Assembly: GCA_951804945.1 (NCBI GenBank)
Contig: OX638150.1
Coordinates: forward strand, 42,966,001 to 43,030,000
Reading direction: 5' to 3'
Source: Podarcis cretensis
Lineage: Eukaryota
Length of the DNA: 64,000 nucleotides
The position numbers and the translations under genes are program-made. Positions 6,001 to 63,255 of the stretch are shown here, in pieces (position 1 is the first letter of the stretch; every line of letters begins with the position of its first letter). Under the pieces are notes generated by a model. It made no database searches. It worked only from the letters and a program-made list of their open reading frames with translations, and was not told the origin of the DNA.

Positions 6001-9000
6001 GCCAGAAAAGGCACCCATAGCTACTGTTTACCGCTGCCACAATGGCCCCCCCAATGGGGCCGAGCCAGCCCAGGACGGCAGCCTAGACTCAGACGCAGAG
6101 GAGCCCACGCGGGCCCCTGGCGGCCCAGACGACTCCACCTCGTGCGTCAGTTCGCTGAGCTCGCAGCCCGACAGCACAGCTTCGTCTGCCTCTGGTGTGC
6201 GCATGACCAGCTTCGCGGAACGCAAGAAGAAGCTGGCGGCGACAGACAGCAAGTCCAGTGGGATCAGCTCCGAGGGCTCTGAAGTTGGGCCTGTCCCACC
6301 AGATGAGAGCCCCGCCCAGAGCCCCGCCCTCAGCTCAGAGATGAGCCAGCTGGGGGCGCGGCTGGAGGAGAAGCGCCGGGCCATTGAGGCTCAGAAGAAG
6401 CGCATTGAGGCCATCTTCACCCGGCACCGCCAGCGCCTGGGCAAGAGCGCCTTCCTGCAGCTACAGAAGGCCCCCGATGCCCAAGGCCAGTCGGAGGATG
6501 GCCGGCTCGCTCTCGAGGAGCGGCTTGCCCAGCTGGAGGCCGAGGAAGAGGCCGGAAGCCCTCGGGCCCGCCTAGACAACAAGCAGGTGACCTTTTCCCC
6601 GGAAATCACCAAGGGCGGAGCATTGGACGAGAACCTGGGCGACTACAACCGGGCGGTGGCCAAGCTGAACACTGCCCTGAGCTCCCTGCAGCTGGACATG
6701 CAGCGTCTGAGCGATCAACAGCAGCGCCTCCTGCTGGATAAGAAGCCTAGTGTGCAGGCCTGGGTGATCCCAGCCCCAAGGACCGGCCGTGAGGGGGCTC
6801 CTCCCCGCTCCTCCCTGGAGCTGTCCTCCCCATCGCCGTCGCCCTCCCCTTCCCGCAAGTCCCGCTCCCCTCAGCCCACCCCTAAGAAGTCTCCTGCCCC
6901 GGCTCCGCCCAAGAGCCCCCGGCACGCCCGGCCAGTGGAGCTGAAGTTGCCCCCCCTCACGCGGGTCCTGACACCTCCCCACAACGTGGACACCCTCCCG
7001 CACCTCCGCAAGTTTTCCCCCAGCCAGGTGCCCATGCAGACCCGCTCCTCCATCCATTTTGCCGAGGACGAGGAGCTGCCCGTCCCGGAGGCCCAGGGGA
7101 ACTTGCGGCCTGTGGCCTCAGTGCCCCCTCAGGGGGGCAATGGCCGTGTCTCGGGGGATGGCACCAGTGACGTCTCCTCGCCCAGCGACCGGCGCAGCAG
7201 CCTGATTGAAATCCCCTTGTCCAGCCTGAAGGGGGAGGAGGAAGACGACGATGCAGATGGCGACGACTCGCTGGAGGGATCCATCACCGAGGCCCTGGAC
7301 TCCGAGCCGGCCCGGGCTGGCATGGGCTTCTACTTCAAGGTAAGCGCTTTAAGCGGAGACTGCTAACACTCATGACTGGCATTCTGCACTTTCTATAGAA
7401 GAGCTTTTGGAGCATGGCCAAGAGGGAGCTGGGTATGGCTAGGCCTTTGGAGCCAGCCAGGGCTAGGCTGGGCTTCAGGTGGCTGTGCTGCTTCGCTCTT
7501 TCTTGGCTGGCTCAAGGTAACAGGAGTAGGCGGCCTGCAGTGGGACAGGGATTCCAAGGGGCCCCTTTTGACTGACAGGAGTGTATGCAGAATGTGCAGG
7601 TGGGGTTGCTCAAGCCAAGTGCTTGAACAAAGACACTGTGTGTGTGTGTGCAACTTAAAACGGACATCTCCTTTCTGAGATCCTTGTGGATCAGGGAAGA
7701 TCTTTTTTCAGACGTGTTTTTCTACTGCGCCAGCTTAAATCACACCAGCTGCTGCTACTCTCTAGTGGCGATGCAGATCTCTGCAGCATCTTGGACTGGC
7801 CCAAAGATAGGACCATAAGCATGAGCTCTAGAAGCAGAGCTCAGCCTCAAATGAAGAGAGGATGGAGTGTGGATCATGGACAGAATGACCTCTGCCAGGT
7901 TGACTTGGGATTTGCAGTGGGAGTTTGAGGTTGCAGTTCCTGAGCTTTCTGCCAGTTTTGGACCTCATTCTGAGGCTCGATAATCCTGGGACCTCCAGGC
8001 ATCAATAAATCACATGAAGTTTTTTCCTTCTCTCTATCACCTACCCTTGGGATTCTGATCCTATCTGTAGGTGCTAGGAACCCCATTTTGGGCAAGCCCT
8101 AGCCACAGCTGGCAGGATCACACAGGATACATGGAGTGGCATCTCCAGAGGGGTTGAGAGCAGTTGGCTCCAGTCCAGAGGAAGGTAGAGAAAGAACCTA
8201 AGAGCTCTGCTGGATCCAACCAATCTAGTTACAGATAGGTAGCCGTGTTGGTCTGCCATAGTCAAAACAAAATAAAAGAAAAAAAATTCCTTCCAGTAGC
8301 ACCTTAAAGACCAACTAAGTTAGTTCTAGGTATGAGCTTTCGTGTGCATGCACACTTCTTCAGATACCAACCAATCTAGTTCAGCATCCAGTTGTCATTG
8401 TAGCCAACCATAAGGATAGGCCTGGCTGCTGTGTGACTCCTGTCCTGAAAGTGAAAAGTGACCCTGCATCTTAGAGGACTCACCCACCCTTTCTTTCTAC
8501 TGACTCACTGCGTTTGTTCAGGATGAGGCGAAGGCTGAGGAGGAAATGGCGCAGAAGCGCGCAAGCTTCCTAGAGAGGCAGCAGCGACGCACTGAGGAGG
8601 CGAAGCGCAGGAAGCAATGGCAGGAGGCGGAGAAGGAGAAGAAAGAGGAGGAGGCAAGGTGAGGTTGGGATGGGGGAAGCCACAGGGTCCTTCTCATCCT
8701 TGGCCCTCTTTGTAGGCATGGCCATGGTAGGTGCTTCTGCTGTGGTGGGAGGCCTTGTGCTTCCAGTATTCCACCCCCCCCAGTAGCTCTATTTGGTTTC
8801 TCCAGTTCCCATGCTACACCGACACTTACAAAAATCGAGACACTCAAGTAATGTTTTATACATCTATAACTACTGCTTCATTTGTTTTGTATTGGTTCTG
8901 ATGCACTGGGATTTCCCATTGTGTGGAAATGGCTCTCATGTCACAGTGGGGCCTTTGTGTGAATGGGGCCCTTTTCACTCAATCTTCCATGGCAAAAGGG

Positions 9001-12000
9001 GCAAGATTCAGGGCCTGGCCATTCAGAATGAGGGTATAATATGCAGATTTGTTGCACTTATTCCAAGGACAGTGTCTGGATCTTTCTTGGAGCAAAATGT
9101 GCCCACCTTATGTAGAGCCAATGAACTCTGACTGCTTGGAGTGCCATCTTCAAGGACTTTCTCCTGTACAAACCCTGCTGCCTAGAATGAGATTTGTGTG
9201 TGAGCAAGATTGTCTAGTGCAAAATAAGTTCTTGCTGGCCCTCAACTCGTAGATTTTCTTCTAAGCTGGCAGCAGAAGTGTGTGTGAGTAAAGGAAATAA
9301 CCTGGCAAAGTGTTGCTTGCACCTTCCCCCAGCAGGGCTCACTGCTTGTGGTATGGAGGGCAGAGGAATCGCTGTAACCTCTGGCAGATGCTTATGAGCC
9401 AACCACCATTTTGACATTCCCGCATTGACCTGATGAACCATTGTCTTGGGACATTATGGGAATAATTTGCAGGGGATTCTAGGGGATATATTCTAGAGCA
9501 GTATATTCTAGAGCAGGAATAGCCAATGTGGTTCCCTCCAGGTACTGCTGAACTACAAGCCCCCACCTTGTTCAAGGGCATGGGTAGGCAAACTAAGGCC
9601 TGGGGGCCAGATCCGGCCGAACTGCCAGTCCGGGAATCAGCGAGTTTTTACATGAGTAGAATGTATGCTTTTATTTAAAATGCGTCTCTGGGTTATTTGC
9701 GCGGCATAGGAATTCGTTCATTTTTTTCTTCAAAATATAGTCCGCCCCCCCCCCACAAGGTCTGAGGGACAGTGGACCGGCCCCCTGCTGAAAAAGTTTG
9801 CTGACCCGTTTTAGGGAATGTTCTTGGTTTGCACAAAGGCCATCAGTTGTGCCTACTGGACCTGGCTGTTATGATCCATGAGCTGAGAATGCAGCCACCT
9901 CCCATTGTTGCTTCATATTGCAAGAGAAGAGGGGTAGTTCTGGGAAGCGTGTCTGTGGATACCATACCCCCGCCCCCATTAAGGAACCATGGAGGGGGTT
10001 TCAGAATGCAGATGAAAAACTAATTCATTTTACCTAACTAAAGGCAGAATTCACTTGATGAGTCCCATCAGCGGAAGCCCTGCGTAAGGACTTTCATTTG
10101 CACAGCAGGGTTTCCCCCCCTGCGCCTCCTAAAACTGGAGAGGAGAGATCAGCCCACTTGGTGAGCTGCAGTGCATTTTAGTATGATGTTGAATCCTTCT
10201 TCCTATAACTGCAAAATGCCCGGTGGATTTTGGGTTAATAGCAGATTCTGTGCCTGGTGGGCTTGTAGTCACTTTTAACCTCTGGCTGTATTCTTGACTG
10301 TGCTTCTCCAGACAACGGCAGGCAGAGGAGCAGCCCCGGCAAGAGGAGGAAGTGGTGGGGCCGAGGCGCGGTGACTTCACCCGCCTGGAATACCAGCGGC
10401 GCCATCAGCTCAAGCTGATGGAGGACCTGGACAAGGTGCTGCGGCAGAAGCCCACCACTGTGCGCGCCCTCAAGAAGGGGCGACCCAAGACCGTCTTCTG
10501 TGATGACTCTGCCCTCGCGCGCAGCCCCGTGAAAGGCCTCCTTGGTAAGAGCTGTGGCTAGTTGGGAAAGGAGCTGGGCATGCTCTGCAGGGCGGCGGAA
10601 AACTTGTAAACGCAGCTGCCATGTGTCACGGTGGTGCTAAAATGCAAAGGGACCGTGGTTCAGGAAAGGGACAGCTGTGGCCATGTAAACTTTGCCCCCA
10701 ACTCCTGATCATGTGCCTGCCTATTCCTAGGCTCCAAGCTCAGCAAGGTGTATTCCCAGTCGACTCTCTCGCTTTCTACGGTGGCCAATGATCCTGGCAA
10801 CTCACTCTCCATCAAGAGGTCTTCTCGGTGAGTTTGTAGTACTTCTACTTAGCCTTAGTTACAGATAGGTAGCCGTGTTGGTCTGCCATAGTCAAAACAA
10901 AAAATTCCTTCCAGTAGCACCTTAAAGACCAACTAAGTTAGTTCTAGGTATGAGCTTTCGTGTGTATCTGAAGAAGTGTGCATGCACACGAAAGCTCATA
11001 CCTAGAACTAACTTAGAAGAAGTGTGCATGCACACGAAAGCTCATACCTAGAACTAACTTAGTTGGTCTTTAAGGTGCTACTGGAAGGAATTTTTTGTTT
11101 CTACTTAGCCTTGTTACTCTTAACGCATTAAGAGGGCACAGGGGAGATGCAGAAACCCTGGCAGTGTGCTCTAGGGTGGGTGGGATTTGGATTGGCCTTC
11201 TAGCTAGTAGCAGGCCCGAGGGAAATGGGTTTGTGCTGCACTTGCAGAAGCTAAGGGTGAGCACTTCCGTTTTGCAGAGCTGCGTCTCCTTCTGGGCCAA
11301 TGTCCCCCAGCCGGTTGCTGTCCAACCAGAACCGGGAGCGTGACTGGGAGAACGCATCGACCGCCTCCTCGCCAGCCTCCATTCCAGAGTACACAGGTAA
11401 ACCTATTGCTGTCTCAGCCCTCCCTTCCAGAAAATTCCAGCTTTCCTTCTGTGATTCTACAGAGGGAGCTCTGCTAGATCGCCTTCTCCAAATGCACTGG
11501 CCAAGTGTCTTGATCTGGTGCCTGCTCTGCAAGGGCATCAAGAGACTTCCAGATCCTTTGCCTTGTGAAGCATCTTCTGCTTGTCTTGGCAGGGCTGCCT
11601 TCCTTAGGGAACCTCCTGAGCCTGACTTCTCTGCTGAACTCTTCTTCTCTCTGCAGGGCCCAAGCTGTACAAGGAGCCCAGTGCCAAGTCCAATAAGTAC
11701 ATTATTCACAATGCACTGTCTCACTGCTGCCTTGCTGGCAAAGTCAATGAACCCCAGAAAAATCGCATCCTGGAGGTAAGCCGAGGGGGCAAGTACACGG
11801 GGTGGGATGGCAGGTTGTTAAATGGCTGTGGGCTGGGCAAGGTGCATCCTTCGCCCTCGTCTTGCTGAACTGTGCACATCATGTAGATGTCCTCCTCTGA
11901 TCTCTGTGAATTTGGAAGAACATCATGTTGGCTCCAGCTTCTGACTCTGCATGGGCTTTGTAGCTATGGACGTTTGCCTCTGCATAATACAGCATGGCCT

Positions 12001-12648
12001 CAACTTCCGCTGTTAGACTATAGCAGCATAAAAGCATCACACTGGCTGCACCACTGAGAGATGTTAATCATAGAACCCCATGTGCAAAGGTGTTTGGTCA
12101 CCTTCATTGGCTGTGAGCCTAGTGGCGGTTGAACCATACTGGCAGAAGTCTCCCTTTTCTCAGTGGAGATGAAGAAAATCATGTGTGACATGTGCTGGCT
12201 CACTCAGTTTCACAAGAACTTAGAACTGTACGTTGTTTGTTGTTGGTTCTGCAGACATTTCTAATGTTGGAATGTTTTATGTGCCTCAACTTGATTTTTA
12301 CTCCTGTTTTACACGCATCTTCCTCCCTGCCCCCCTCCATTTTAGGAAGTGGAGAAGAGCAAAGCCAATCACTTCCTCATCCTGTTCCGTGATTCAAGCT
12401 GCCAGTTCCGGGCGCTGTACACCCTGTCGCCAGAGACGGAGGAACTGACGCGCCTGGCAGGCTACGGGCCGCGCACCATCACTCTGGCCATGATCGAGGG
12501 CATCTACAAGTACAGCTCTGACCGTAAGCGCTTCACACAGATTCCCAGCAAGACCATGTCCATGAGTGTGGATGCCTTCACCATCCAAGGACACCTCTGG
12601 CAGACCAAGAAGCCAGGCACCCCCAAGAAGCCAGGCACACCAAAATAG
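5..12648 (+). CDS. CAMSAP3: CAMSAP3 (calmodulin-regulated spectrin-associated protein 3), 5'-partial, last 12 coding exons
   Basis: Exons 5-144, 692-785, 2278-2329, 4163-4239, 5341-5413, 5611-7339, 8522-8658, 10312-10544, 10731-10827, 11278-11396, 11657-11775, 12346-12648. All introns are GT-AG and phases are consistent (3173 nt). Encodes the end of the CH domain (VCLKETMSVADSLYNLQL...LAELFLCFEVLKPDFV), SQAVSFSIPFGLDSDVD, coiled coils (LEEKRRAIEAQKKRIEAIF) and the C-terminal CKK domain (GPKLYKEPSAKSNK...FLILFRDSSCQFRALY). Synteny with XAB2/PET100/PCP2 identifies the paralog. Confidence 0.96.
2576..2672. repeat. Short palindromic MITE family (ctacaactcccatcatccc...gatgggagttgtag)
   Basis: Decayed copies also at about 3000-3050, 4650-4770, 5095-5200, 9535-9570, 19105-19220, 30733-30867, 34043-34150, 40905-41000 and 55416-55530. 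Confidence 0.65.
5611..7339 (+). CDS. CAMSAP3: CAMSAP3 large central exon (1729 nt)
   Basis: Acceptor ttccctag at 5610 and donor AAG|gtaagc at 7340; it forms the bulk of ORF 5531..7366. Confidence 0.95.
8231..8366 (-). mobile_element. Penelope-like retroelement terminal-repeat fragment
   Basis: Flanked by a 15-bp direct repeat CCAACCAATCTAGTT (8216-8230, 8367-8381). Contains a minimal hammerhead motif typical of Penelope-like pLTRs; near-identical to the copy at 10861. Confidence 0.75.
8329..8368 (-). ncRNA. Minimal hammerhead ribozyme motif (antisense to CAMSAP3)
   Basis: Minus strand reads GGTAT-CTGAAGA-A-GTGTGC-AT-GCACAC-GAAA-GC-TC-ATACC. Confidence 0.65.
9580..9807. mobile_element. Non-autonomous hAT-Charlie-type DNA transposon remnant
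   Basis: Ends gggtaggcaaact... and ...ggtctgagggacagtggaccggccccctgctgaaaaagtttgctgaccc, resembling hAT-Charlie termini. Confidence 0.6.
10857..11098. mobile_element. Penelope-like insertion with inverted arms and internal tandem duplication
   Basis: Flanked by TTCTACTTAGCCTT (10843-10856, 11099-11112). Arm 10895-10964 is the exact reverse complement of 11031-11100; 46-bp tandem duplication at 10970-11015 / 11016-11061. Confidence 0.8.
10964..11047 (+). ncRNA. Tandem minimal hammerhead ribozyme motif, sense strand of a CAMSAP3 intron
   Basis: GTAT-CTGAAGA-A-GTGTGCATGCACAC-GAAA-GCTC-ATAC at 10964-11001; the second unit (11016-11047) lacks the CTG of the core. Confidence 0.65.
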
Positions 12649-14201
12649 CCAGGCCTTTCCAACCTCAGTCCGTCTACTGCTTTTCTCTGCCTGGACTTTA
12701 GAGCTGCTACTTGTTAGGTTGCTGGCCCAAGTTGGATACATGGAACCCTACCAAAATGGGTGGCTTGCGTAGATGGGTCTGTTAAGCAGGGGGGGGTTAC
12801 ATCTTGTACTGGACCAGCGTTATCTCTGGCTGGATCAGAGCCACACAGGAGTCTTGTGCATAGTTCTGATGCCTGTTCTAAGGAGACTACTTTTTTTTTT
12901 TGGGGGGGGGTTGTTGACAGATGCTCTGGAAACTGCCAAATCCCATGATAATTTAGAGGCTCAGAGTTGCCATAGTGACACTGCCCTACATGCGGCCTGT
13001 GTGCGCTCGTCTGGGCTCCTGCATGCTCTGTCTGCCTCCAGCCACCACCTGAATGTTGGTCCACCACCACATCAATGAAGGGTCTCTCTTTCTGGCTCCT
13101 GCTTGCCTGGGGAATGGGGCCCAGGCCTTCTTTGGTTCTGTTTCCCTGGGTGCCCTGGTTTCTTGTTTCCCTGGGTGCCCCTGTTTATATTTATACATAC
13201 TTATACATATATATATAGATATATATATATATCTTGGAGCTATTTAATGATTTTTCAATTATTTGTATATAAAAAGGAACAAATTGCATTTGGAACAGTG
13301 GGGCAGGGTGAATTTGTATATGGAGATAGGCATGGTGGGGGGAGGGTAGCACAGAACAAGGTGTGTGTGTGTGGATGGATGTTTCCTCCTTTGGCGTTTT
13401 GTCTTTCTTCCTTCCCCGCTTCCCCTTTGGGCTTTTTTTTCCTGCTCCCTTGTTCACAAGGGCTATTTGGTGTAGGGATGGGCAAGGGCTGTTTACATGT
13501 AATAACCTTTTAGCAGGCATTTTGGGGGGTGGCAGGGAGCCTGTGAATTTGGCAAGCTTCAGCTGGCCATTCTCATTCAAAATATTTGGAAGCTGGGAGT
13601 TGCTGTAGTCACAGAGCAGGCCTCTGTGGATCCTGAACTGAGCTGCCAAATGGAAAAAGCAAACTCCTACCTGCTCTAGGAAGAGAGCAGGCTCCAGCCT
13701 CTTCCCTCCTTCCTTCCTTACCAGTTTAGAGCTGCACCTCCGGGCTGTAGCAGGCAGTGAATGTAGGCTGCTCCTTCAGTTGTCCTCCCCAAGAGCCAGA
13801 GGAGGCCTGGGCACTGAGGGGCTTCTACCCTCTTTTCTTTCTCTTCTCCCCCACCCCCTACCCGGCCCGCTTGCTGTTTGGGTCTTTTCCTCCGCCTCCT
13901 GCTCTTTTGGGGTAGCAGTTGCTCTCGAGGCAGTGCAGGAGGGAGCTGGGGGAAGCCAATCCTGTTCAGCTTGGGGTTCTGTCTTGTTCAACTTTATTCC
14001 AGGTCTCTCGTGGCTGCTTGTTGATGACCGAATGTCATGTAGGTGTTTGGGGATACAGTATAGTGCAGGGTTGGTGTTAAAAAAAAATTAAAAGGGCAGG
14101 TGGGAACTTTGTCCCTGGCTGCTTAATAAAGTAACTTAAATGAACTCTTTGCTGGTCATTACTTGGTGTACTTCCATCCCACACAGAGTGGGGTGAATAA
14201 A
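12649..14201 (+). other. CAMSAP3: CAMSAP3 3' UTR with polyadenylation signals
   Basis: Follows the TAG at 12646-12648. AATAAA at 14125-14130 and 14196-14201; (TA)n tract at about 13196-13232. Confidence 0.65.
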
Positions 14202-15387: not shown

Positions 15388-18300
15388 TCAATCATCCTTA
15401 AGGCCTCCAAACACAGCGGAAGGAACACTCTTCTGCTCCAGCTGCACCTCTGTAGGAGAGAAGATTTGGGATAATCAATATAGAGCAAGAATAGTCAGAT
15501 GTCAAGCTTAGAGAAATGACTTAGCTGGGTTGAACCTCAGCATTTTAGCAACCATTGCTGATTTGTGCCAGAACTAAGCTGAACTCTCTTTTTTACATAA
15601 AAATATACTCTTAGTTTTGCCAAAAGTATCTTCAGCAATCCCCCTTTTTCGTGTGTGGAGACTTTTTAGAGACCTGGCAGATCAGAAACCCTTGCCTACT
15701 TTGTGCCTATTCGCTTCAAAAACTAGACCACACAGCACCGTCTCTTACTTACCGTCTGGCTCATTATCCTCACTCTCATCTCCATCATCCAAATCAATGT
15801 CTATCTCATCAGGATTAGCCTGTTTGGAGAGTTCAGCCAGCTCACTGCGGGAAGCATCACTCCTAGAAATGAGGAACAAGAAACCGGTGAATCGTACAGG
15901 AGCCAGCACAGCATTATTCACACAGTGACTGCCCCATGCCTATACTGCAGGAAACAGGTCCATCCTGAGAAGATCAAGCTGGCTTTACAGGTTCACATGT
16001 CTCTTCTCCACTGCAGGCTGCAACTGAAAGCCACTAGATAAGCTACACCAACTATTAGAACCTGCAGCGTTGACTCAACTCTACAGCTTCACTATCCGCA
16101 TGACCATAAATGCATTTGGCTTCACTGTAACAACCATCAAGGCAAAACAGAACAAAAATGCATAGTGAAGGGGCCACTGGAGATTAAGACATAAGTCACA
16201 CCATTGCTACACTCCTCCCTCTACCCTGATCTGCAAACTCTTAATCATGTTTTGTGTTAGTTTCAGGCTTTAGTCTAATGTCAAGATCTTAGACTTCTCA
16301 CCATAACGTTTAGCAGACAAGACTCCAGGATCACGTCACTTAACGAAAAGCCCAGCTTGGGTATGACAGTGTGTGCCTGCCACTACCCAAAGGAGCCACA
16401 AGTTTAATCATGATAAGAACTAGATTTCCACTACCTATCCAAATTGAGTGCATGTGGACACATACAGAATTTTAACACAGCAGATGGACAAACTGAGCAG
16501 TTGTTTAAAAATGTCTCTTCCCCCACCCAACAACCACAAAAAAAACCTTTGAAGTAGTGGAGACAGTAGACACAAGGCGGTTTCTGTGGCCCTGGCTATA
16601 CTTTTGTGCCTCTTCTACTACCCAAATTCCAGGGGGAAATATTTTTAAGACCTCTAACTAGAACATACATGCATTAAGATAAAAAGTAATGTACACTGCA
16701 CATTAAATAGATTCTGTTTACTGCCTAGTTTCTCATGGCAAGAACACTGCATGTTTTCCCATTTCCAGCAGCAGCCACCTTGTGCGGCCATCCCTACTTC
16801 TTCAACTCTCCAAGCTTATGACAAACAGCTTGGTTCTTGCCCAACGTGAAATATGACCCCTGGTGTATTCCATGCTGGGTGGTGACCTACAGCAAAGAGG
16901 TTAAGCAAATCTCCCTGGCCTGTAGTACACTCACCTGACAAACAGGATCTTCTCCTTAGCTTGGGGCTGATCTCGCTCCGCTTCAGCTGCCAACTGCTCC
17001 GCCCGCTGCTCTAACAGTTTCATGTCATCCATGCCACTCTGCCCAGGTGCCAAGTCAGACACTGAAACCGAAAGACAAGCAGAAGGGAAGGGCAGAGGAA
17101 GGGTTAAAACAGAACAGGAGATGTAGCAGCAGACACCCCTCTGTGTCAGGACCTGTGCAGGGGGCAGGGGCTGAGACCTACCCGTGCCCGTGGCATTGCT
17201 GTACACCTTCAGCATTTGAGAGGCCATGAAGTTGACTTGTGTGTTGTAGGTTGCTTGCACGCTTCGTTTAATGCGAAGCATCTCCCGGATAGTGTCTTCG
17301 TTCCCATGCCGGATCTCAAATTCCTTCCATGTCTGCCAGAAATTGGCAGTAGTCTGGCAGGAGAAGAAAAAGTGTTTTGAGGGGTGGGGTGGGAAATAAG
17401 GCAGTCACTGCGCAGTTCAACAGATCAAGCAGAACTTCTCCTTCCTGCTTCACTAGTCTTTCCCCTGAGCTCTGCTATGGGAAAAGCAACATGGAGGTGT
17501 GTCTGTGTACAGAGATGAGTTGTTCCTGTGCAGTGTATCTTCTGTACCAGAAATTAAAACCCTTGCATCTTTGCGATAAGTAAGTTGTTATAATAAATAA
17601 AAATAATTAAAAAATAAAAATAAAATAATAATAATAATAATAAACAACAACTAATGATGCCGATAGTTATCCTTGAACATAATGGAGAGCTAGCTTTTCT
17701 CACCTTCCCACACTAGGTCCTAAAAAGCCTTGCTCAGGCAGATGTATGACTAGTTCTTTAGTGTGTGGGAGAGATCACAGAATTGTAGAGTTGGAAGGGT
17801 CCCCGAGGGTCAACTAGTCCAACCTCCTGCAACGCAGGAATCGCAGCTAAAGAACCCCTGAGAGATGGCCATCCAACTTAATTAGAAACTTCTCACAAAG
17901 GAGAGCCCACCAGGTGACTTACTCGGGGATCACACATCTGCGAACAGTAGGAATAGATGGCCCGAGCTCGGTCTATTTCGCCCAGCTTGCACTCCATGTC
18001 GGCAAAACGCAGGCACATCTCCCGAGCGTGTTCATCTGTCAGCACCTGCAATGGGGATACGTGTTAAAATTGCACCCTAACCGTCAATGTTTCTAAAATG
18101 GCTAGCGAGTTAAAAACAAAAGCATCCAAACACATATTGCAAACTGAAAGGGACGCAATAAGAGCACAGCAGCAGAAAAAGACACAAGTTGAATTGATTT
18201 TAGCAGTCCTGTTGCACAATGACAAAGATTCGTGTGGACACCAAGTGAGCCTCCCCAAGGGCAGTCTTCCAAAAGCTGAGGATAGCAATCAAAGGGCCTG

Positions 18301-21300
18301 GCTCACTCTCAGCCCTGTTTCTGAAGTGGACCTCAGGGCACAAGCAGGTATCTCTGGGAAGTGGTCCCAAGCTGTATAGGGCTTTATAAAAAGGTAGCAC
18401 TCAACACTTTGCCCTGTGCTGAATAATAGCAAAACAGCATATTGCACAGTATCCTCATAGTTGTAATAGTGATTACAGAAGCTGTATTTGTATTTACCCC
18501 ATATCATATAAAGGAACACAATCCTATTCAGCCATTACCTAGCAGACTAGTTCCTCTCTAGGCGAGAGCAAGAGACTCATCCTGGAGTTTTAAACACAGC
18601 ATTATTTATTTGGAAAGAAGGAACTAACCTCAATAGCCTTCTCGTAGATGCTACGTGTGTGTGTGACCCCATAGATTTCAGCTGCTCTCTTGATGTAGAT
18701 ATTGTACATGTCATACTGCTCTGAAGGTTGCACAGCCTGAGTGGCCCTCTCATACACTGCCATGGCATGGCGTGCCAGCCCATATTCTTCCTCCAGTTTA
18801 GCATACAGCAGGTAGATAGCTGTGAACAGAGAAGAAATTAAAGCAAAACTACATTCCTCCCCCACCCCCAATCTTTGGGTCAACTCTTCTCACCAAGACA
18901 TTTTGGCCCTGTATGGACTATGTTAGTGACACTCCAGATACCATAGGAAAAGTTTTAAATAAGCACTGCCCCAAGGGAGAATTATTCAGATTGCCCTCTG
19001 ACACTGAAGAGGATGTGACAGATGTTCTCTCCATCTCAATGACTCCTGCTGGACAGGAACTTATCAGGCCTCAATACAGATTTGCTACCCAAAGGGGCAC
19101 CCTTCAGATGTTTTGAACTACAACTCCCATGATCCCAGACTACTGGCTAAGCCAGCCCAGTTGAGGCAGATGGGAACTGCAATCCACAACCTCTGGAGAA
19201 CACCACGATGGCAACCACTGGGTTATGGATGCAGATGCCCTGTGGCTCGCTTTGGGAGCAAGTCCTCTAGCTTTGGCTTTGCTGTTTCCTGTATCTCAGC
19301 TTCCGTTGCCCAGGAAAGCAGGACTGAGCTTTCGCCATTATCTGTCAGCTCCCACCCACCTATCTTGACCCACCCCCAGGCTTTTACTGGCTCTGCTCCC
19401 TTGCAACAGAGCAGAGCTCTGCTTACTTTTAGCGTATTTCTGGGGGCAGCCATCTAGAGCCTGTTCAAAGAGGTCCCGTGCACGCTCCAACTTCTTGCCA
19501 CCATAGCGGTCGGTGAATTTGGTAAGATAGGTGTTCCAAATGTCATACACGTTTGGCCACTTGAACAATGAGATGCCCCTCTCATACGCCTGCCGGATAG
19601 AAGGAATGGTAAGAAAAAGACAGCAAAAGCTTTCTTCTTGTTGGTATACTCTTGCCCTTATGAAAACCACCATACTGAGTCAGGTGATTGTGGTCTACAC
19701 CAGTACTATCTGCTCTGGCTGACAGCAGCAACCCAATATCTCCAAAACAGATAAATCTTTTTCCAGCTTTGCTACCTGTGCTCTTTAATCTGGAGATGCC
19801 AAGGAATGAATCATGGGACCCATTAGCTGAATCCTACCCTCCATGCTAATCTTTCCAAAGGTTACAGAGACATAGGATCTGCAGAGTTCCGCTCTGCTAC
19901 CTAAGAAGTACACCACACACTGTAGATATTTTGAGCCCAAGGTCCTCTCTCTCAAGCTCCACAGCTTGCAGCAGGCAGCTTTTACGATTCAATGGCTCCC
20001 AAACCAACCAGATGGGCAACTTCCCACTCCCCCAGCGGCTATGAGAGCAGACAGAGGTATTGATACGGCCAACTCACCTTGAAGCTCTCTTCAAAGTAGC
20101 TGTGCTCTTCCAGGAAGAGGCCATAGTTAATGATGATTTGTGGGGTTGCAATGCGCAGGTCCAGAATGCGGTCATACACGGCTTTAGTAGACTAGGGGCG
20201 GTGACATAAAGAAACTTCAATATTAGGCTGAACCACAAAGAGACAGCCGAGTTACAGAGACAGCTTGGGGCCCTCAGTCACTGTCCCTTCCCCAGCTATG
20301 CCCAGAGATATAGAGGGAGGAGATCAGGAGGGAGGAAACAAGTCCCTGTGGTCAATACAGGCCTTTTAATGCAGAGCTGGCAGGGCTGCTGCCCACAGCT
20401 GCTCAAGGCAAGCGGTAAACAAGGCTCCCTATTACCGTCAAAGGGAATCAGTAGGCCCCAGTTGGATTGTCAGAAAAGATGGGAGCAAGAACTGTAGTGC
20501 TTCTCACGCAGTGTACTACTTCACATGTAGTGTACTACTGCTGTGTGCTTCACATAGTGTTTTATTTATCGATTAAATCTGTCAACTACTTTATCTTGTC
20601 CAAGGCAATCCACAGCGACTTGCAACCAAACAGACAATAAACCTCACATAGATACATTAAAACCAAGAGAAAAGGGAAATGCATTAAAAATATCCCAGCC
20701 ACTTCTAAAAGGCTAGCTAGAAATAATCATGAATAAAAGGGGGAAACACTGAAGGCAGGAAAGAAGTCAGGAGAGCACAGATAAATATGCTGAAAGAAGC
20801 TATGGGTACAAAAACCCACTCAGTTTCTTGAAGTAGAGACTTCGCTTCAGGGAGCGGGAAGTCAGGGGCTTGAGTTGTGCAAGGCTGCTCTGCTACTGAC
20901 TTACAACAGCTCCATGTAACAGAGCCAGTTCTCTGGGCCCTAATGTTACTCCCTAGACAGGCACAGGAAGCAGTTGATGGAGCATGACAGCCCCCCTCTC
21001 CGTGCCTCAGCATCATACTATTTCAAAGCCAAAGCCATGGTGAAAGGGGAGGAGAGGAGGGTACAGTCTCTAGAATAGCTTAAAGATGACTAGGAAACAG
21101 TGAGGGTCTGTCGTTTTGGGTGGTTCAGAAGATCTCCAAGTATAGCATTAGCTAGCAAACCAAGAAGTACACGGAATACCTAACCACTGATTTTGTGCCA
21201 CTCAAAAGCCAAGGAATGCCAATTCAAAAACCAGCTCATTTGTGCCTAGCTAAAGCTTTTTTTAAAAAAGAAAAGAAAAGAAAAGAAAAGATGACTTTTG

Positions 21301-24300
21301 GGAGGGCTGATGAAGTGGCAAAAAGTCATTCACTTTCTGCACAGCTTGTCCCAGTGGTTAATCTTTTTGCCTGCTAAACTGGAGCCACGTTTCTAATTTG
21401 TCTTTAGTCTAATTCCCAGATGTTGACCCTTATTCTGTCTCTCCCTGCTAGTTCAAGGACACATTTACTGCCCACAGTACTTGCTTCCTTGGATACTTCT
21501 CAGACACTTCTGGACAGAAGGCGATTAAAGCTGATTGAATAATACTTAAAACAGCCAGAGAAAAGTGCCATGATAGGAAAGAAGAACAGAAACCCAAAGC
21601 TAATGCTTTTCGTGTCTGGATGAGGCAGGCTTCTATGGCTGCTCCAGACAGGAAAAGTTGGCGCTTGCCCTTTCCACAACTCCAGAAGGCTCTGGCAGAC
21701 AATGGAGGCCAGGAAAAGCCACTTACCTTGAAGGTTCCAAGACTTTCTTCCAGGTCAGCCAACATTGACCAAACCTTGAGGGACTTGTAGACACGGTTCT
21801 GCACAGGTTCTGAGGAATCAAAATACTCTGCTTTCTTAGCTGGGATGGCTGTGGCTTTCTGAAGGAACAAGAGAAAACATGATTAAGGGTAGAATTCACA
21901 TAGCACTAAGTAGGGTATGCACATGGGGAACAAGGCCTGCTCAAGCAAGAAGATGTCCCCCGTTCTCCCCGTGTGCCCTCTAAACCTGTTCTGAGGGTCC
22001 TCTAACTTCCAGAGCAGAATTTCTTTTTGGGGTTTGTGTGTGCGTGCGCGCGTGTGCGTGCGTGCGTGCAGAGGAATCCTGTTGTGAGAACAGACCTCGC
22101 TTTGCGCTTGCAACAACTTGGTTGAATCCCACCCTTAGAATGTATCTCTCTCTTTAGATATAAATTATCTCTGCAGACAGGAAACTGGGTGGCCTCACAT
22201 TGTTAGAAATACAAAAGCTTAGGAATCTTGGTTTCCTGCTTTCTTATTTAGCCACACCGCACCATTCAGCTAATAACGGTGCTTCCCTGTGATTCAACCA
22301 CTAGAGCTCCAACTCCATTCAGGGTGATGTGGACAGAAGAAAGGAGTCTTGTTTTTGATTGCATGACTATACGCCCTTAACTCCGAAGTAATCGTCTGGG
22401 AACCCAAAAAGCAACACTTCTGGATTATCAGATGCCTGCCACCCTGTTTCTGTTCACCCGCAGGATGCGCAGCGCTTGGTCATAGTTCTCGTGCCGCAAC
22501 TCCATCTCGCCATATTCGCACCACACGCTGGCCAGCTCATCCACTTGCTTGAAGTTGACCTTGGTAGCCTTTTCAAAAATGGTTCTGGCCTGGGAACAAG
22601 TAAGGTAGGCAAGGTGAGGGGGAAAGCAGGGCCAGAAAGAGCCCCCAGTTTCAGCATCTCCTCTCCTTGGACTAGGCTATGTGGTGGGGCAGGTCATCTG
22701 AGTAATGCTGCATCACCAAGGATGGTGGCTTCCCGGAGTTTGGGTTAGGTTGATTGAATACAGTGGTGCCCCGCAAGACGAATGCCTCGCAAGACGAAAA
22801 ACCCGCTAGACGAAAGGGTTTTCCGTTTTGGAGGTGCTTCGCAAGACGAATTTCCCTATGGGCTTGCTTCACAAGACGAAAATGTCTTGCGAGTTTTTCC
22901 GACTTTTTTCCCCTCCCCCCTTTTTCTAAGCCGCTAATCCGCTAATAGCGCTAATCCGCTAAGCCGTCAATGGGCTTGCTTCGCAAGACGAAAAAACCGC
23001 TATACGAAGAGCCTCACGGAACGGATTCTTTTCGTCTTGCGAGGCACCACTGTATAAGACTCGCTCACCACAACAAAAATTCCTGAATCAATTTACAAGA
23101 AGAATGAAACACAGTAACAAAAATGCATGGAGTTAAGCCTGAGGCAGCTGTGGTGAAGGGCATTTGCAACACAGAACCCGAGTCTCTGTTGTGCTTCTGG
23201 GCAGCAGCTAGGAAAGTAAGGCAGGAAACATTTTGAAAGGCAAGGACGGAGCAGCGTCAGCCTCCCAAACCCATGCATCACTCACGTCTTCGATCTGTCC
23301 ATTGACCTCGTAGAATTTGGCAAAAGAAACCCAGAGCGTATGTGTCTTTCCGGTGGCTTTAAAGGGGTCGACAGTCTGCACCGCTTCTGTGTATGTGTTG
23401 ATGATCTGGAGGAAGCAGGGAGAGAGGTAGAGGAAAAGAAAAGATTGAGCTCTGGCAGGTTCCTAGGTTCTTTCCTTCCTGTACGGTTTGGTGGCTGTAG
23501 CTGCGAAGCACAACACAGAGGAAGTGAGAAGTGCCAACTAGTACAATCCCAATGAAGTTTTTATTCTGGAAAACAGCCTGCTTCTCAGCAGATCTAGAAG
23601 GCCACTAGATGGTGACAAGTGGGAGAACTGGCTCTCCATTTCCAGCTCAGCCCTGCCTTCCAGGCAGCAGCTTAATTAGACCAGCATGAGTACCCTTCTG
23701 AGCAAATGTGGAAACTCCAATGTGCTGAGCACCCATTAGTAGACAGAAGCTTTTTGAAACTTCATGAAATTTGCTTGGGGTGGAGGGAGCCCCAGTGGAC
23801 GAAATGCTGTGTCAACTTCCACCAGTGACACGACCAACGTTGGGTGGCAGCAACTCCTTGGAGGGTATTCAGATTCAGCTCCATACCCAAAACTTCACCA
23901 TTCATCACTGATGCTGCAACCAAGTGTTTAATAGAAGGGGAACATGCTAGCCTGAAAGTTCAGCAGCTCCCTCGTTCCCAGCGCTGGGTCTGCTCATGCG
24001 ATCCCTACTGTGGGGATTTCCTTACCTCGCGAGGTTTGCCTTCATACAGCTTCACCCGCTTGTGCCACTCGTGGACGTTGTGAGGATTCTGGCGCAAGAG
24101 GACACTGTTAAGAAGCAAGGGCCGGCGTGTGATCAGCTGCTCAAAGCGAGCCAGGCGCAGCTCCAGGTCCACGTCATCTGTTTCCCCAGGGGGGCAAAAG
24201 AGCAGGAATGAGAGATGGTGCAGGAAGGCAGCTACTTGCAGCTGAAATCCCCCCCCCCTATTTTCTCACCTACACATTCCATACCTATAGCTATGCCCTG

Positions 24301-27300
24301 GGTTCCTTTGGGAGGAAGAGCAGGATTTTATATGAAAATCTATATATCTATATATTCCTCAAGTTCCAAAGGATGTCCACAAAATGCAAGGATACTGAAT
24401 TAAGAATTGCTGGGTCCACATCCAATGGCCAAAGAAGAGGGAAGCTCTTTTAACATAAGGCTTTATCAATGATGCCACCCCAGGGAGAAACGTCCATCAC
24501 AACTTGAAAAAGTTTAGGGAGAACTGAGACATCCTCAGGAGTCTCAACAACTCTGGCATGCATTCTCCTAGATGCAGTCTGGAGAAGAATTTCTTCTCTT
24601 CCAAAAGGGAAGGAGGAGCAGCACCTGCTTCTTGCCACCTGCGCTGCTCTTACCCTCCTCCTCACGTCCCATCTCAGAGCTGGTCTCCATCTTGGCAGCG
24701 ATCATGCTCTCCTCAAATTGGGCGTAGCTGTCAAACACCTGAGTGAAATCCCGCACTGTCATCACAGTCTGTATGGCTTCTTCGTAGACATCGCGAGCCT
24801 AAGACAGAGAGGGTGAAGGGATTACTGTTCCAGTCTGCAAAGCAATGCCTGTGGTCTCTGTTCCCACGACCAGCTACCAAGCAGCTTCGACTTCTCTAAT
24901 GGTTTTCATGGGAAATGCTCTTAAGAAAGCACAGATCACCACTCAAGACGTAACTACTTATATGGAACTCAAAGCTTTTTCTTATTGTGGGAGGAAACGG
25001 TGGGACAAGAGGAACTGCCTCTGGGATGAAAATGATCTACAAAGAGGTTATTTGGAACAGGCAACATAAACTTCCTATGCCAAGAAAGAGCAGGTACCCG
25101 CAACTCAGTCCAAAGTGACAACTGCATTCTAACAGCTTTCAGAACTCAACCCTATATGTAACTGGGATGTTGAGGCCGGGGGAAATCACACACTAGGTTG
25201 CCCATCAAATCCAAAGTCTATTGGCTAAATCGGTAGTTTTCAACCTGGGGTGCCTTGAATGATGGTCAGGGTACCACGGGCAACACTGGCCTCTATCTCT
25301 CTTTCCTTCCCTCCCTCCTGATGCCCTCTTGTGTCTCTGCCTCCCAAAGGCTTGCACAGCTGTTTGTTGCAGCAGTCCTTGCTACAAGCTCCTCAGGCGA
25401 ATGGTGCCTCTGGGGCCAGCCAGGGGTTGCTTCCCAGGCCCCTGTGGGGCAGTTTGAGGAGGCATCTCTCTTGGGGGGGGGCAACTCAGAGACCAGGGGC
25501 GGCAGCTGCAGCTGCCCAGGGGAGAGGAGAGGAGGCTGAAGGAACACTCCACAAGGGAGGGTTTCAAAAAAGGGTGAGAGGCTGCCACATCTGCAGGCAA
25601 GGGGTGACATCTGGGCTCCTGAGCCCCACAGGGGTGCTGCGGAAAGAATGCAGTTGGTCAAGGGAGCCGTGGACTCAAAAAGGTTGAAAACCTCTGGGCT
25701 AAATGCCTTTGCCTTTGATTCTAATTTGAGGAGGAATCAAGTTACAGGATCACCCAGAAGTTTAAACCTGAACAACTGAGGGCTTGTTCAGATGTCCCAA
25801 AGGAGGAAACACGTTATTGAGTACTAATTCTCAGTCTCCTCCAGCTGTCCATACATCACATTTTTTTCACCGGTTTGCTGACCTCGGTACCAATTAAAAA
25901 AGCAAACAAACAATGATTTCTAAAAATCTACTCAGCATGACATTAAGACATTAAAATCCTGCTTGTTATGTACAGTCACCCCAGAAAGCAGTAGGATTCT
26001 TATTTGTTTTCCCTAGTGACTTTTCACAAACTTGGAACACTTCATGTATTATGAGACACTATGAATTCTTCTGATGGGGAGAGAGCAGAACAGAAATAAA
26101 AGAAGAAAATCATAGGAGATACTCCCACTATCCTTTGTCCCTCCTCTATGCTAGGTAATTTTCCTCTACTGCCAATCTTCCAGATTCTTCCATTTCCGTT
26201 TTTGTTTGGTGGCTTGTAAGGATTTCTGTTGGTTATTTTGCTGACTGTTCCTTATCTGATCCCTACAAGCTCAGTAAACGCCTTATTTAAAAGAGTGAAT
26301 TAGGAGAAGAGTGGAGACAGACAATAGCTCTTTTTAAGTGAGTTCAAAGTGATCTAAAAGAGGCTTCCCTTCTGGTGAAAAAGGTTTTCAGAACAATAGA
26401 AACACCTATAAAGTCTGCTTAGTAGGGGTACATGTGGGTGGCACGTATTTACCATTACAGTGGTGCCCCGCAAGACGAACGCCTCGCAAGATGGAAAACC
26501 CGCTAGACGAAAGGGTTTTCCGTTTTGGAGGCGCTTCGCAAAACGAATTTCCCTATGGGCTTGCTTCGCAAGACGAAAATGTCTTGCGAGTTCCTGCGGG
26601 GTTTTTTCCCTTTCCCCCCCCCTTTTCCTAAGCCGCTAAACCGCTAATAGCGCTAATCCGCTAAGCTGTCAATGGGCTTGCTTCGCAAGACGAAAAAACC
26701 ACTATACGAAGAGCCTCACGGAACAGATTAATTTCGTCTTGCGAGGCACCACTGTACTAGCAGACTTTTGTTCAAACTGTCTTCAGCCCTTCATAAAAAT
26801 TAATGTCTGTCTCGAACCCAAGATTTTCACCAAATAAAGGTGAAGTCTTGCTCAGACCAGATGAATAAGGAATTTAAGAGGAAATAGCTGAAAGACTTGA
26901 ACGTTACACTCTGTGCCATTTTGAAGTTCCCCCTGGAATTGGGATATGACTCCAGCCAGGTCCCTGCATCACAGCACAAACCCTCAGGCCCAGTGACTAC
27001 CTTCTCAAAATGCCCACTGCGGATGTAGTAGTCTGCCAAGGAACACCACAGCTTGCCCAGCTGGTCGGTGAAGCGAGTCAGGCCGCCCCGGATTATGGCC
27101 CCCACATTGAGCGACTTCACCTTGTCCGGATTCTGCGAGATGAGGTCACAGAGCTCGTGCCACAGCTGCAACGGAGAGGACAAGGTGTCAGAGAGATCTT
27201 GGCAATGCTGAGAGGCAGGAAAAGCATCAAGTGTACAGGTTGTTCTGCAGCAGGCATCTTTGGATGAAGGAGAAGAGAGATCCTCCACATAATTTTGGAG

Positions 27301-30300
27301 GGCTGACCGCCAGCTACCATGAGCCTCACTTGATAGTTGGATTTCCCCTCCTTGGAGATGAAGCGTTCATCATTCACCACAGCGGCAAGGCGGACAGCAG
27401 CCTCATCTAGGCGGTCAATGGAGCGCAGGTACTCAATATATTCCTCAGCATTCTCCGGGCTCAGCTGCAACATAAAAACGCGTACAGCTCAGAATCCACC
27501 AGAATGCTGACAAGACCAAAACAGTGGCAGTAGAAGAGCTAATGTAGATTAATTGCAGCACTGCTAGAAGTGCCAACTCAAGGTTAGCTAAGAATACAAG
27601 GAGTAGCTTACAACCCTTTGTGCATAGTGTGTTATAGCTATTTAAGATTTGTCGGGGGGAACAAGTGTGATTTCTTTTAGGCAACATGACAAAATTTTCA
27701 CTTATTCCAAAATTAAAATAAAAAACAGCAGATTAAACAGACTACTATCTACAGATTTAGAGCAGACAACATTTTGTAAAGAGGTGTCCTAGTTCAGGAG
27801 TCCTAAGCAAAGGGTTTCAGACCCAGAACCCCTTTTTATGTCCATCTGCAATGCAGGATCTACTTAAGAGTTGGCATATGTTCATTTATCCTCGCTGTAG
27901 GGTGATCAGATGCAAAAAAAAGTACAACGTCTTGCATCTTTACCAGATGTATATAAGAGGGAGTTGTAAAAGATGGAATTAGTCATATAGGGCTGCAAAA
28001 AAATTGTCCCTGCTGAAACTTCCTGTTCTGCGAAACTACTGAAGGCTAAGGGATTGTGGCTTCCTTTGCATCTGGTGTCTTGGTTTCTTTAAAAATAACA
28101 GAAAAAAGAAAATTATTGTGCGCCACTGATGTAATTTACAACAAGAGTCTGCATCTCAACTCCCAGCTGAAGGCCAGTTCTTGGGTTAACACAATGAAAT
28201 GTGCATTAGTATTTCTGGAAAATTTCCCTGATCTGATCTAGAGAGGTTCCCAATTAAATAACACTTTTGTCCGATACTCTCCCTTTGAGAAGGGATTTCT
28301 CTGCCGAAAAAGCAATTTTATTGTTCTCTGTCATAAATGAAATCAATCAAATATTTTGGTGCTATTGAAGAATTTATTCCACAGCCTTCTGATCTCTCTG
28401 TACCCTCTCTAGCCACTTCCAAACACTAGGAGTACCCAAGTCAAATACAGTATTCCAGAAGAAGTTTCACAAGGGCTATGCACAAGATTAAAAGCAGGAC
28501 AAGAATTCATTCAGTGCTAATAATGAAAAGGAGCCTAAAAGAGAAGAAACCCATTTAGGCAGTCATTGCTCAAGGAAGACAACACCTTCTCTACAAAGAT
28601 TACGCAGATGGCTCAGAGGTGGAAGAATTTGGTAAGACAAATTAGTTGGGGACATGTGGGCTCCCTTACCTTCAGGTACCTGCGGTAGACCCGTACAGCT
28701 GTCTCGGGTAATGGATACAGGCGCACAAACTTCAGGTAGAGTGGCCAGATACGATGGTGCTGTGTGATGGGCAGGGCCCGGAGGGCTCGGTCAAAGGTCC
28801 TACGGGTGCGGGTGATCCGACACTGGTCCATAAGAAACTGGCAGTAATCTAGCCATATCCGAGGCATCTACAATCAGACAGATAATAAGAAAATAGCAAC
28901 TCCCTTTGGGGATCCGACCAAAGGTTAACACTGTCCCACAGCCTGCTTCTAATAGTGGCTACACATATGTGACTAGGAAGTTCACAAGTGGGCTATGACA
29001 AACAACAGTGGCTTGCATCTAGCATGCAGCAGTCAAGTAAGTCACTGCCCCTGAATACAGCTGTTCCATTTTTAGAAATTCTGCTTAATGGACTTCACCA
29101 ATTTATCTATTTCTTTATTCAAAAAGCCAACGAACTTACTTGCAAACTCCACACTTTGTAATACTAGGGTTGCCATACGTCTGGAATTTCCCGGACATAG
29201 CCAGGATTCGGCCGTCTGAAACAGTGTCCAACAACTTTTGTGTGTTTCCTTTTTGCTTATCCTAAACCTATTGCAATCTATTACCGTATTTTCCCGTGTA
29301 TAAGACTAGGTTTCCCCCCTAAAAATAATGTCCAAAATTTGGGGGCATCTTATACACAGATAGATCTCTAATTTCACTAGGAGACTCAAGTACTAGTGTT
29401 TTGAATAAAAAATTCTCTACAGAATGGCTCATCAGTTTACAAACCCTTCAGGGATTTTCGTTAAGGCTTTCTTCTTAAGGAAGGAGCTCCCCTGTTATTT
29501 TTATCATTCCCTTCCCATTGCTATGTGGCATCTACAACAGTTTCTGAGACAAACTCACAGATTTAGGCTAAAGACTGTTGTTTTTAAGAGAGTTGAAAGT
29601 GGTACACTAGAGCCATTATTGAACTCTACATATGCACACATCTGAGAAACAGTTCTGGAATCAAAACATATGTGAGGCCTTCACACAGATATTGTCATAA
29701 CCCAGCCAGAATAGCAGCCATTATGATTGACTCACTTTTCCCAGGTGTTACCAGCCCTCTAAGCATATCACCAACCACTGTACCTTGTGCATGAAGACAA
29801 GGGCACGCTCATGACAGTTGTTCACTTCTTCATAGCTGGGATCCGTTACACACTTGCTCTTTACCTGCTTCCGTCGCTGCTTGAGATAATTATACCATAG
29901 CTTGTAGCTGCAAAACACAAAGGGGGCAGCTATTAACATTAAAGTAAAATATTTTGCCATGTTACTCCCAGCTCTCATTACGAGGGGAGTTGGATGATCA
30001 TAGTGCCTTGCTCCTGAAATAAACCAGGGAAACATCAACAGGGACAGCAAGGAGTTCCATCTGTTGAGGGTATTCCTGTCTGCTTTCAGAAGAGACCAGA
30101 AAACAGACCATAAGAAACTCCCCTCAGCTCTGGAGAAGTTAAGAGTTAGTCTTTCATTTACATTTTTTATACAACAATTCCTTATGAAAATCTGGATTGA
30201 AAAAGGTTACCCTACTATCTTCATGCGGTTTGCTAAAGAACTTTACATAAAAGAGACACAAGTGCATACCTGCCTGGCAATTCCTTAAGAGCTCTCTCAT

Positions 30301-63126: not shown

Positions 63127-63255
63127 NNNNNNNNNNNNNNNNNNNNNNNNNNNNNNNNNNNNNNNNNNNNNNNNNNNNNNNNNNNNNNNNNNNNNNNNNN
63201 NNNNNNNNNNNNNNNNNNNNNNNNNNNNNNNNNNNNNNNNNNNNNNNNNNNNNNN
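63127..63255. other. Assembly gap (129 N)
   Basis: Run of N characters. Confidence 1.

Follow-up and report, generated by a model that had tools for sequence, protein, structure and literature searches.

A young head-to-head insertion with a minimal hammerhead motif in a CAMSAP3 intron, most likely derived from a Penelope-like terminal repeat

A hammerhead ribozyme motif, enclosed in a long hairpin, lies in the sense strand of an intron of CAMSAP3, which raises the question of whether the pre-mRNA of this gene carries a self-cleaving, regulatory RNA or the trace of a mobile element. A preliminary description of this DNA, a stretch of 64,000 nucleotides referred to here as the window, had proposed a tandem hammerhead that would cut the transcript as an intramolecular dimer controlled by a competing fold, or that could simply be silenced. 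According to our analysis, the feature is in all likelihood a recent insertion, flanked by a target-site duplication (TSD), in which two copies of a highly repeated element stand head to head. The element is most likely the terminal repeat of a Penelope-like element (PLE), and its hammerhead is predicted to be carried along without activity.

Anatomy of the insertion and of its hammerhead motif

The insertion measures 256 bp and, with both copies of its target site, the feature spans 10843-11112, wider than the interval first described (10895-11100); its parts are collected in Table 1. The two arms, 10895-10964 and 11031-11100, pair over 70 bp without a mismatch, which confirms the perfect hairpin claimed earlier, and the final 2 nt of the right arm are common to the target-site copy. 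A second perfect pairing of 32 bp (10933-10964 : 10985-11016) uses unit 1, the complete hammerhead motif. The left arm is truncated at its 5' end inside helix II and therefore lacks the CUGA core, which makes it an antisense blocking arm on the pre-mRNA, while the tail next to it is identical to the 3' end of a second copy of the element at 8226-8367. Four characteristics of the element type were thus found together: the 14-bp TSD, a head-to-head inverted and 5'-truncated copy, a one-ended tail of 38 bp, and a terminal-repeat hammerhead. The fold of the hairpin has a z-score of -16.2, none of 200 shuffles being equally stable, and a descriptor of the minimal hammerhead matched just 10968(+) and 8363(-) within the 64-kb window and none of 200 shuffled windows; on account of these shuffle results, motif and hairpin are not attributed to chance.

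Table 1. Positions of the insertion, its hammerhead units and the surrounding features in the window
Feature	Position	Strand	Basis
Left target-site duplication copy, 14 bp	10843-10856	+	Identical to 11099-11112
Right target-site duplication copy	11099-11112	+	Repeat analysis; empty site of organism B
PLE-type tail, 38 bp, at left end only	10857-10894	-	Outside the inverted repeat
Left arm, minus-strand element copy	10895-10964	-	Inverted-repeat pairing
Head-to-head junction, 3-nt microhomology between arms	10962-10964	.	Deduced from family contigs matching from 10962
Right arm of 70-bp inverted repeat	11031-11100	+	Stops at the inner, tail-less end
Unit 1, minimal type I hammerhead	10964-11001	+	Motif reading; features described in PMC4209133
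Unit 1, helix I (4 bp)	10964-67/10998-11001	+	Motif reading
Unit 1, core CUGAAGA, then unpaired A	10968-74; 10975	+	Motif reading
Unit 1, palindromic helix II	10976-89	+	Motif reading
Unit 1, GAAA; palindromic AGCU	10990-93; 10993-96	+	Motif reading
Unit 2, 46-nt tandem duplicate of 10970-11015	11016-11061	+	Repeat analysis
Second, non-inverted element copy in other CAMSAP3 intron, antisense to gene	8226-8367	-	Sequence comparison
CAMSAP3 intron, 450 nt (194 nt without insertion)	10828-11277	+	GT-AG, open frame across

In the RNA sense, unit 1 reads GUAU-CUGAAGA-A-GUGUGCAUGCACAC-GAAA-GC-U-C-AUAC, and the hammerhead is found where it had been placed, with its 4-bp helix I, core, GAAA, AGCU and C17 at 10997 (11043 in the duplicate). 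It has the PLE-type core (CUGANGA...GAAA, A15.1-U16.1 and H17), a helix I within the expected 4-5 bp, the unpaired base between positions 9 and 10.1, the G10.1-C11.1 pair and the palindromic 15.2-16.2, and it is without helix III. The intact core, the 4-bp helix I, the unpaired base, the 10.1-11.1 pair, the palindrome and the lack of helix III are all shared with the minimal hammerheads (min-HHRs) of metazoan PLE pseudo-LTRs listed by Cervera & de la Pena 2014 (PMC4209133), which agrees with the PLE type suggested for the motif at the outset. The helix II of 5-6 bp differs from the 7-8 bp of the Schistosoma families in the same source. Rfam covariance models, a search that the preliminary description had suggested, returned no hammerhead family at E<=10 among 13 and 6 matches.

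The 46-nt tandem duplication is exact as claimed, its copies 10970-11015 and 11016-11061 being 100% identical. The name tandem hammerhead overstates the case: unit 1 is a complete minimal motif, but in place of its GUAU-CU-GAAGA, unit 2 has AACU-UA-GAAGA. Unit 2 begins within the core and has neither the 5' strand of helix I nor C3-U4, so that it is half a hammerhead without the complete core and helix I of the PLE-type minimal form, and the locus carries 1.5 hammerheads. The min-HHRs of PMC4209133, among which reptiles are included, are described as mostly solo copies from truncated elements, with pairs on opposite strands also noted; unlike the arrangements described there, half of the motif is here duplicated 46 nt downstream, and the motif, set in a host intron, has the sense orientation and follows its own antisense arm. 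As a separate observation, helix II (10976-10989) is a perfect 14-nt palindrome, and in the folding models two motifs favour pairing through helix II over pairing through helix III; this may bear on dimer folding in the element family.

Origin of the insertion and its element family

Contig data were taken from four of the 24 listed runs, namely three from organism A, which belong to one study and of which one may be the source of the assembly, and one from organism B. In organism A, contigs from both unique flanks enter the insertion in 3/3 runs, by 23-26 nt, an overlap below the 31-letter bridging threshold. In organism B, one contig with flanks of 290 and 352 nt and 6 differences in 642 nt joins 10842 to 11099; the site is empty there, and the target is present once. 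The cross-species comparison envisaged in the preliminary description therefore places the insertion in organism A and its absence in organism B, a relative at about 1% divergence, which makes the insertion younger than that divergence.

The element family is highly repeated in both organisms: 7,486-13,351 contigs were matched per run in the four runs, and the summed depth over the element, which is not a copy number, is 4-5 orders above that of the flanks in all of them. Of the 15 joints listed (169 more exist), eight connect the antisense arm with 10961-10969, so that other copies, too, show head-to-head inversion with a sense arm that starts at helix I. Loose contig ends before 10962 are present in 4/4 runs (19-31 contigs each), with a consensus agreement of 0.48-0.58. 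Those before 10964 (43, 45 and 32 contigs, respectively, in the runs of organism A, with an agreement of 0.38) run into unrelated AT-rich DNA, and their equivalents at the tail end are equally prominent, with 31-46 contigs. Both copies in the window (10964 and 8367) and many family contigs begin with base 1 of helix I. This recurrent 5' end differs from the cut site of the hammerhead, and its fixed position at the edge of the helix suggests a defined, short template start and not random truncation. The upstream consensus before 10962 ends with a pyrimidine tract and CAG/TGT, like a 3' splice site, the CAG standing one base ahead of helix I; the intron of Drosophila virilis Penelope extends as far as the 5' end of its helix I (PMC2377424), to the same place relative to the hammerhead, and the end of that intron resembles the consensus of this family.

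The anatomy corresponds to that published for truncated, inverted insertions of endonuclease-positive PLEs, in which an inverted 5'-truncated copy, a one-ended tail of 30-40 bp and a TSD are described (PMC8557442, PMC3846280), the tail also in PMC11167929. The Penelope-like origin proposed earlier is supported by this correspondence; the scans named below linked no reverse-transcriptase or GIY-YIG coding sequence to the element, and its membership among PLEs, which we regard as most likely, rests on anatomy. The head-to-head terminal repeat, the tail, the TSD and a partial tandem are common to this insertion and to endonuclease-positive PLEs, including the anole element PAc (PMC8557442, PMC3846280, PMC11167929), from which it differs in that no coding sequence remains. 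In PAc, the hammerhead overlaps the start of the ORF, within which the tail is found at 111-118 nt (PMC11167929), whereas an in-frame ATG in loop II is here followed by a stop after 6 codons. Animal non-LTR retrozymes likewise consist of a non-coding hammerhead unit of ~140 nt that resembles the PLE terminal repeat (bioRxiv 10.64898/2026.07.22.740005). As described there, they need two or more successive units whose type I hammerheads are complete, whereas the duplicate here is partial and measures 46 nt; with unit 2 incomplete, the definition does not apply and a retrozyme array was rejected. In the same preprint, PLEs are reported as not found in birds or mammals. Exact and degenerate motif scans of viral contigs, metagenome contigs and prokaryote genomes found no related loci.

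The insertion can be accounted for by priming on both strands of the target. The endonuclease of the element would nick the two strands 14 bp apart, and reverse transcription would be primed on both nicks, at an outer start next to the tail on the left and at an inner start on the right. The plus strand from 10857 would then be cDNA from the outer site, and the minus strand from 11098 cDNA from the inner site that shares a 2-nt microhomology with the target; the two cDNA ends would meet through the 3-nt microhomology and overlap at 10962-10964. On the right-hand cDNA, the enzyme would have slipped back by 46 nt close to the template's 5' end and copied that stretch twice. The anole PLE protein, which is predicted to be a dimer, is reported to nick and extend both strands, and its reverse transcription in vitro to start at two sites that bracket the tail (PMC11167929). 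Of the family depth, 60-75% reads A at 11049, while both arms carry the minority variant at 11049/10946; since they also share a short A/T tract, this points to one template species for both. The one-ended tail, the arms identical at variable positions, the 3-nt microhomology and the 14-bp TSD fit two-strand priming. The model for two-ended priming is one that we infer ourselves, and one limited literature search did not find it in print for PLEs; the published alternative is self-priming on an antisense template (PMC3846280). A tail on the second-made arm only is not easily explained by a simple fold-back of one cDNA. The value of the insertion lies in its being a clean record of the PLE insertion process.

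Two other accounts of the structure concern, respectively, its duplication and the nature of the element. It is unlikely, in our judgement, that the insertion is real while its 46-nt duplication arose in assembly or sequencing as an artefact of the palindrome, or is private to one haplotype. The complete identity of the duplicate within a near-perfect palindrome would suit such an account, as would the report that palindromic structures of this kind trouble assemblies (PMC8557442). The preliminary description had itself raised an assembly artefact, and in this respect the insertion is upheld by the flank contigs, while the duplication is read from the assembly alone because the junction 11015/11016 is bridged by none of the contigs listed (37,582 further rows exist). 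A junction contig would, however, be shorter than those listed, a gap in contig coverage proves nothing, and other copies of the family show back-jumps of similar size among the rows listed, namely in 4 of 12, all from run X2 (161 more rows exist). Far less credible still is a DNA transposon of the miniature inverted-repeat (fold-back) kind, or a structure that yields a microRNA, although the long inverted repeat with its TSD and the matches to several miRNA models might point that way. The left repeat is not terminal, with the 38-bp tail beyond it, the second copy moved without inversion, and the junctions vary among copies, on which grounds the fold-back transposon was rejected; the microRNA precursor was rejected as well, the Rfam matches being generic hairpins that all (13/13) fall below their gathering scores (best 49 versus 84 bits).

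Predicted folding of the hammerhead in the transcript

As to cleavage, a hybrid ribozyme can be drawn from the unit-1 core, a 4-bp helix I, helix II and a 4-bp AGCU/AGCU helix III, with a cut after 11043, so that the geometry of the intramolecular dimer imagined in the preliminary description stands; its working fold is not supported. Nearest-neighbour models, which take no account of tertiary contacts, proteins or A-to-I editing, place the active fold of the isolated construct 10964-11050 at 16.9 kcal/mol over the ensemble, a value that none of 90 trims tried improved; in this construct, the two 14-nt palindromic helix-II sequences pair mutually. The active fold lies 25-48 kcal/mol above the ensemble with the upstream arm, 36.7 in the whole intron and 47 in a nascent chain that ends at 11050. 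At all 7 nascent lengths that contain both units, the pairs of the hybrid helix I and helix III have a probability of <1e-12 and the upstream arm is paired with one unit or the other at a summed probability of 1.0. Along the nascent chain, the arm is predicted to hold unit 1 up to 11055 (probability 1.0), to shift at ~11065 and to hold unit 2 from 11080, in keeping with the earlier claim that the competing fold sequesters unit 2. Both hairpin states bury a GAAAGCUC needed by the hybrid ribozyme, and the shift would consequently lead from off to off. The antisense arm, transcribed first, would capture the emerging unit 1 and then pass to unit 2, the ribozyme would never assemble, and the hairpin would likely leave with the excised intron.

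These predictions are in line with what has been described for related ribozymes. Minimal hammerhead monomers are reported as inactive and their dimers as cleaving at a low level (PMC4209133), a picture also given in the review PMC6765202; one of nine Xenopus dimers was cleaved (bioRxiv 10.64898/2026.07.22.740005), and for the anole PLE hammerhead PMC11167929 reports no cleavage without protein and an absence of RNA-seq ends at the site. The amniote intronic hammerheads of RECK, CTCL and DTNB (PMC6155905) are also of type I, in sense and intronic. Conservation among birds, mammals or reptiles is described for them, and cleavage has been confirmed for two human intronic hammerheads (PMC10761166). 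Unlike them, the present motif has no helix III, is caged and belongs to an insertion missing in a relative ~1% diverged; with the orthologous site empty in organism B, assignment to the conserved intronic hammerheads was rejected.

We consider it very improbable that the intramolecular dimer cuts the pre-mRNA after C11043 under the control of the hairpin, perhaps with the aid of protein or editing. This model can draw on the hybrid with its helices I, II and III, on tandem type I hammerheads that cleave as dimers (PMC6155905) and on the protein-assisted hammerhead of the anole PLE (PMC11167929). Against it stand the energies given above for the trimmed, intronic and nascent RNA, the hairpins and a long-range fold that are all predicted to be off states, the lack of a complete core in unit 2 and the absence of the insertion from organism B. 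Since it is missing in so close a relative, the insertion is not a conserved regulatory element. The folding switch affecting splicing or decay was accordingly abandoned in view of the folding energies, the off-to-off hairpins and the lack of conservation, and the fallback of the preliminary description, that the motif is simply silenced, fits the folding predictions. Were the switch real after all, which we hold to be very doubtful, it would amount to newborn control by an intronic ribozyme. As one young copy among very many, with its ribozyme predicted off, the insertion is probably unimportant as a regulatory element.

The second copy and the host gene

The copy at 8226-8367, which is flanked on both sides by its own direct repeat of ~15 bp, has the same 5' start and tail as the insertion and is complementary to the sense arm. 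Its sole difference from the left arm is 12 extra bases in the A/T tract, and it holds a complete minimal hammerhead antisense to CAMSAP3. Together, the copy and the insertion bracket three CAMSAP3 exons that add up to 467 nt. In its state of minimum energy, 8200-11300 folds into an 81-bp helix (8281-8361 : 11016-11096) beside a local helix of 34 bp that the left arm retains; pairing of the two copies is predicted to bring -60.5 kcal/mol when the duplicate is present, as against -30.7 when it is left out. Inverted Alu pairs in primates offer a parallel for exon circularisation and skipping.

On this ground, the insertion might matter as double-stranded RNA, through pairing with the second copy that leads to back-splicing or skipping, or through editing or dicing, which we regard as distinctly unlikely. 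The predicted 81-bp helix, the doubling of the pairing gain by the duplicate and the support that inverted repeats in flanking introns lend to back-splicing (PMC6769675) speak for this possibility. On the other side, the local 70-bp hairpin would form first and the upstream intron may already be spliced, and skipping of the three exons would shift the frame because of their total of 467 nt. A more specific form, in which the duplication permits the local hairpin and the 81-bp zip-up at once and gives rise to a lineage-specific circular RNA of 467 nt or a frame-shifting skip, is a slightly slimmer prospect still. Kinetics would favour the local hairpin over the long-range duplex.

The identity of the host gene agrees with the preliminary description, which had placed the motif in the sense strand of a 450-nt CAMSAP3 intron: the intron is bounded by GT-AG with an open frame across it, CAMSAP_CC1 and CAMSAP_CKK were matched in two of the four exon pieces scanned, and the CKK exon is nearer CAMSAP3 than CAMSAP1, with 171-172 bits against structure chains of the former name versus 118-131 against the latter. 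The donor of the intron is 67 nt away from the hairpin and the acceptor 177 nt, and the predicted accessibility of the splice sites is unaltered by the insertion (donor, 0.12 versus 0.13; acceptor region, 0.36 versus 0.36). Three weak donor-like GT sites with 6/9 consensus matches occur in the insertion, at 10937, 10948 and 11075, all within the predicted duplex. Elsewhere in the window, an assembly gap of 129 N is present at 63127-63255, with GT and GA microsatellites ~140 bases beyond it. Exon-like frames at ~15600-30200 on the minus strand resemble XAB2/SYF1, which we take to be the usual neighbour of CAMSAP3.
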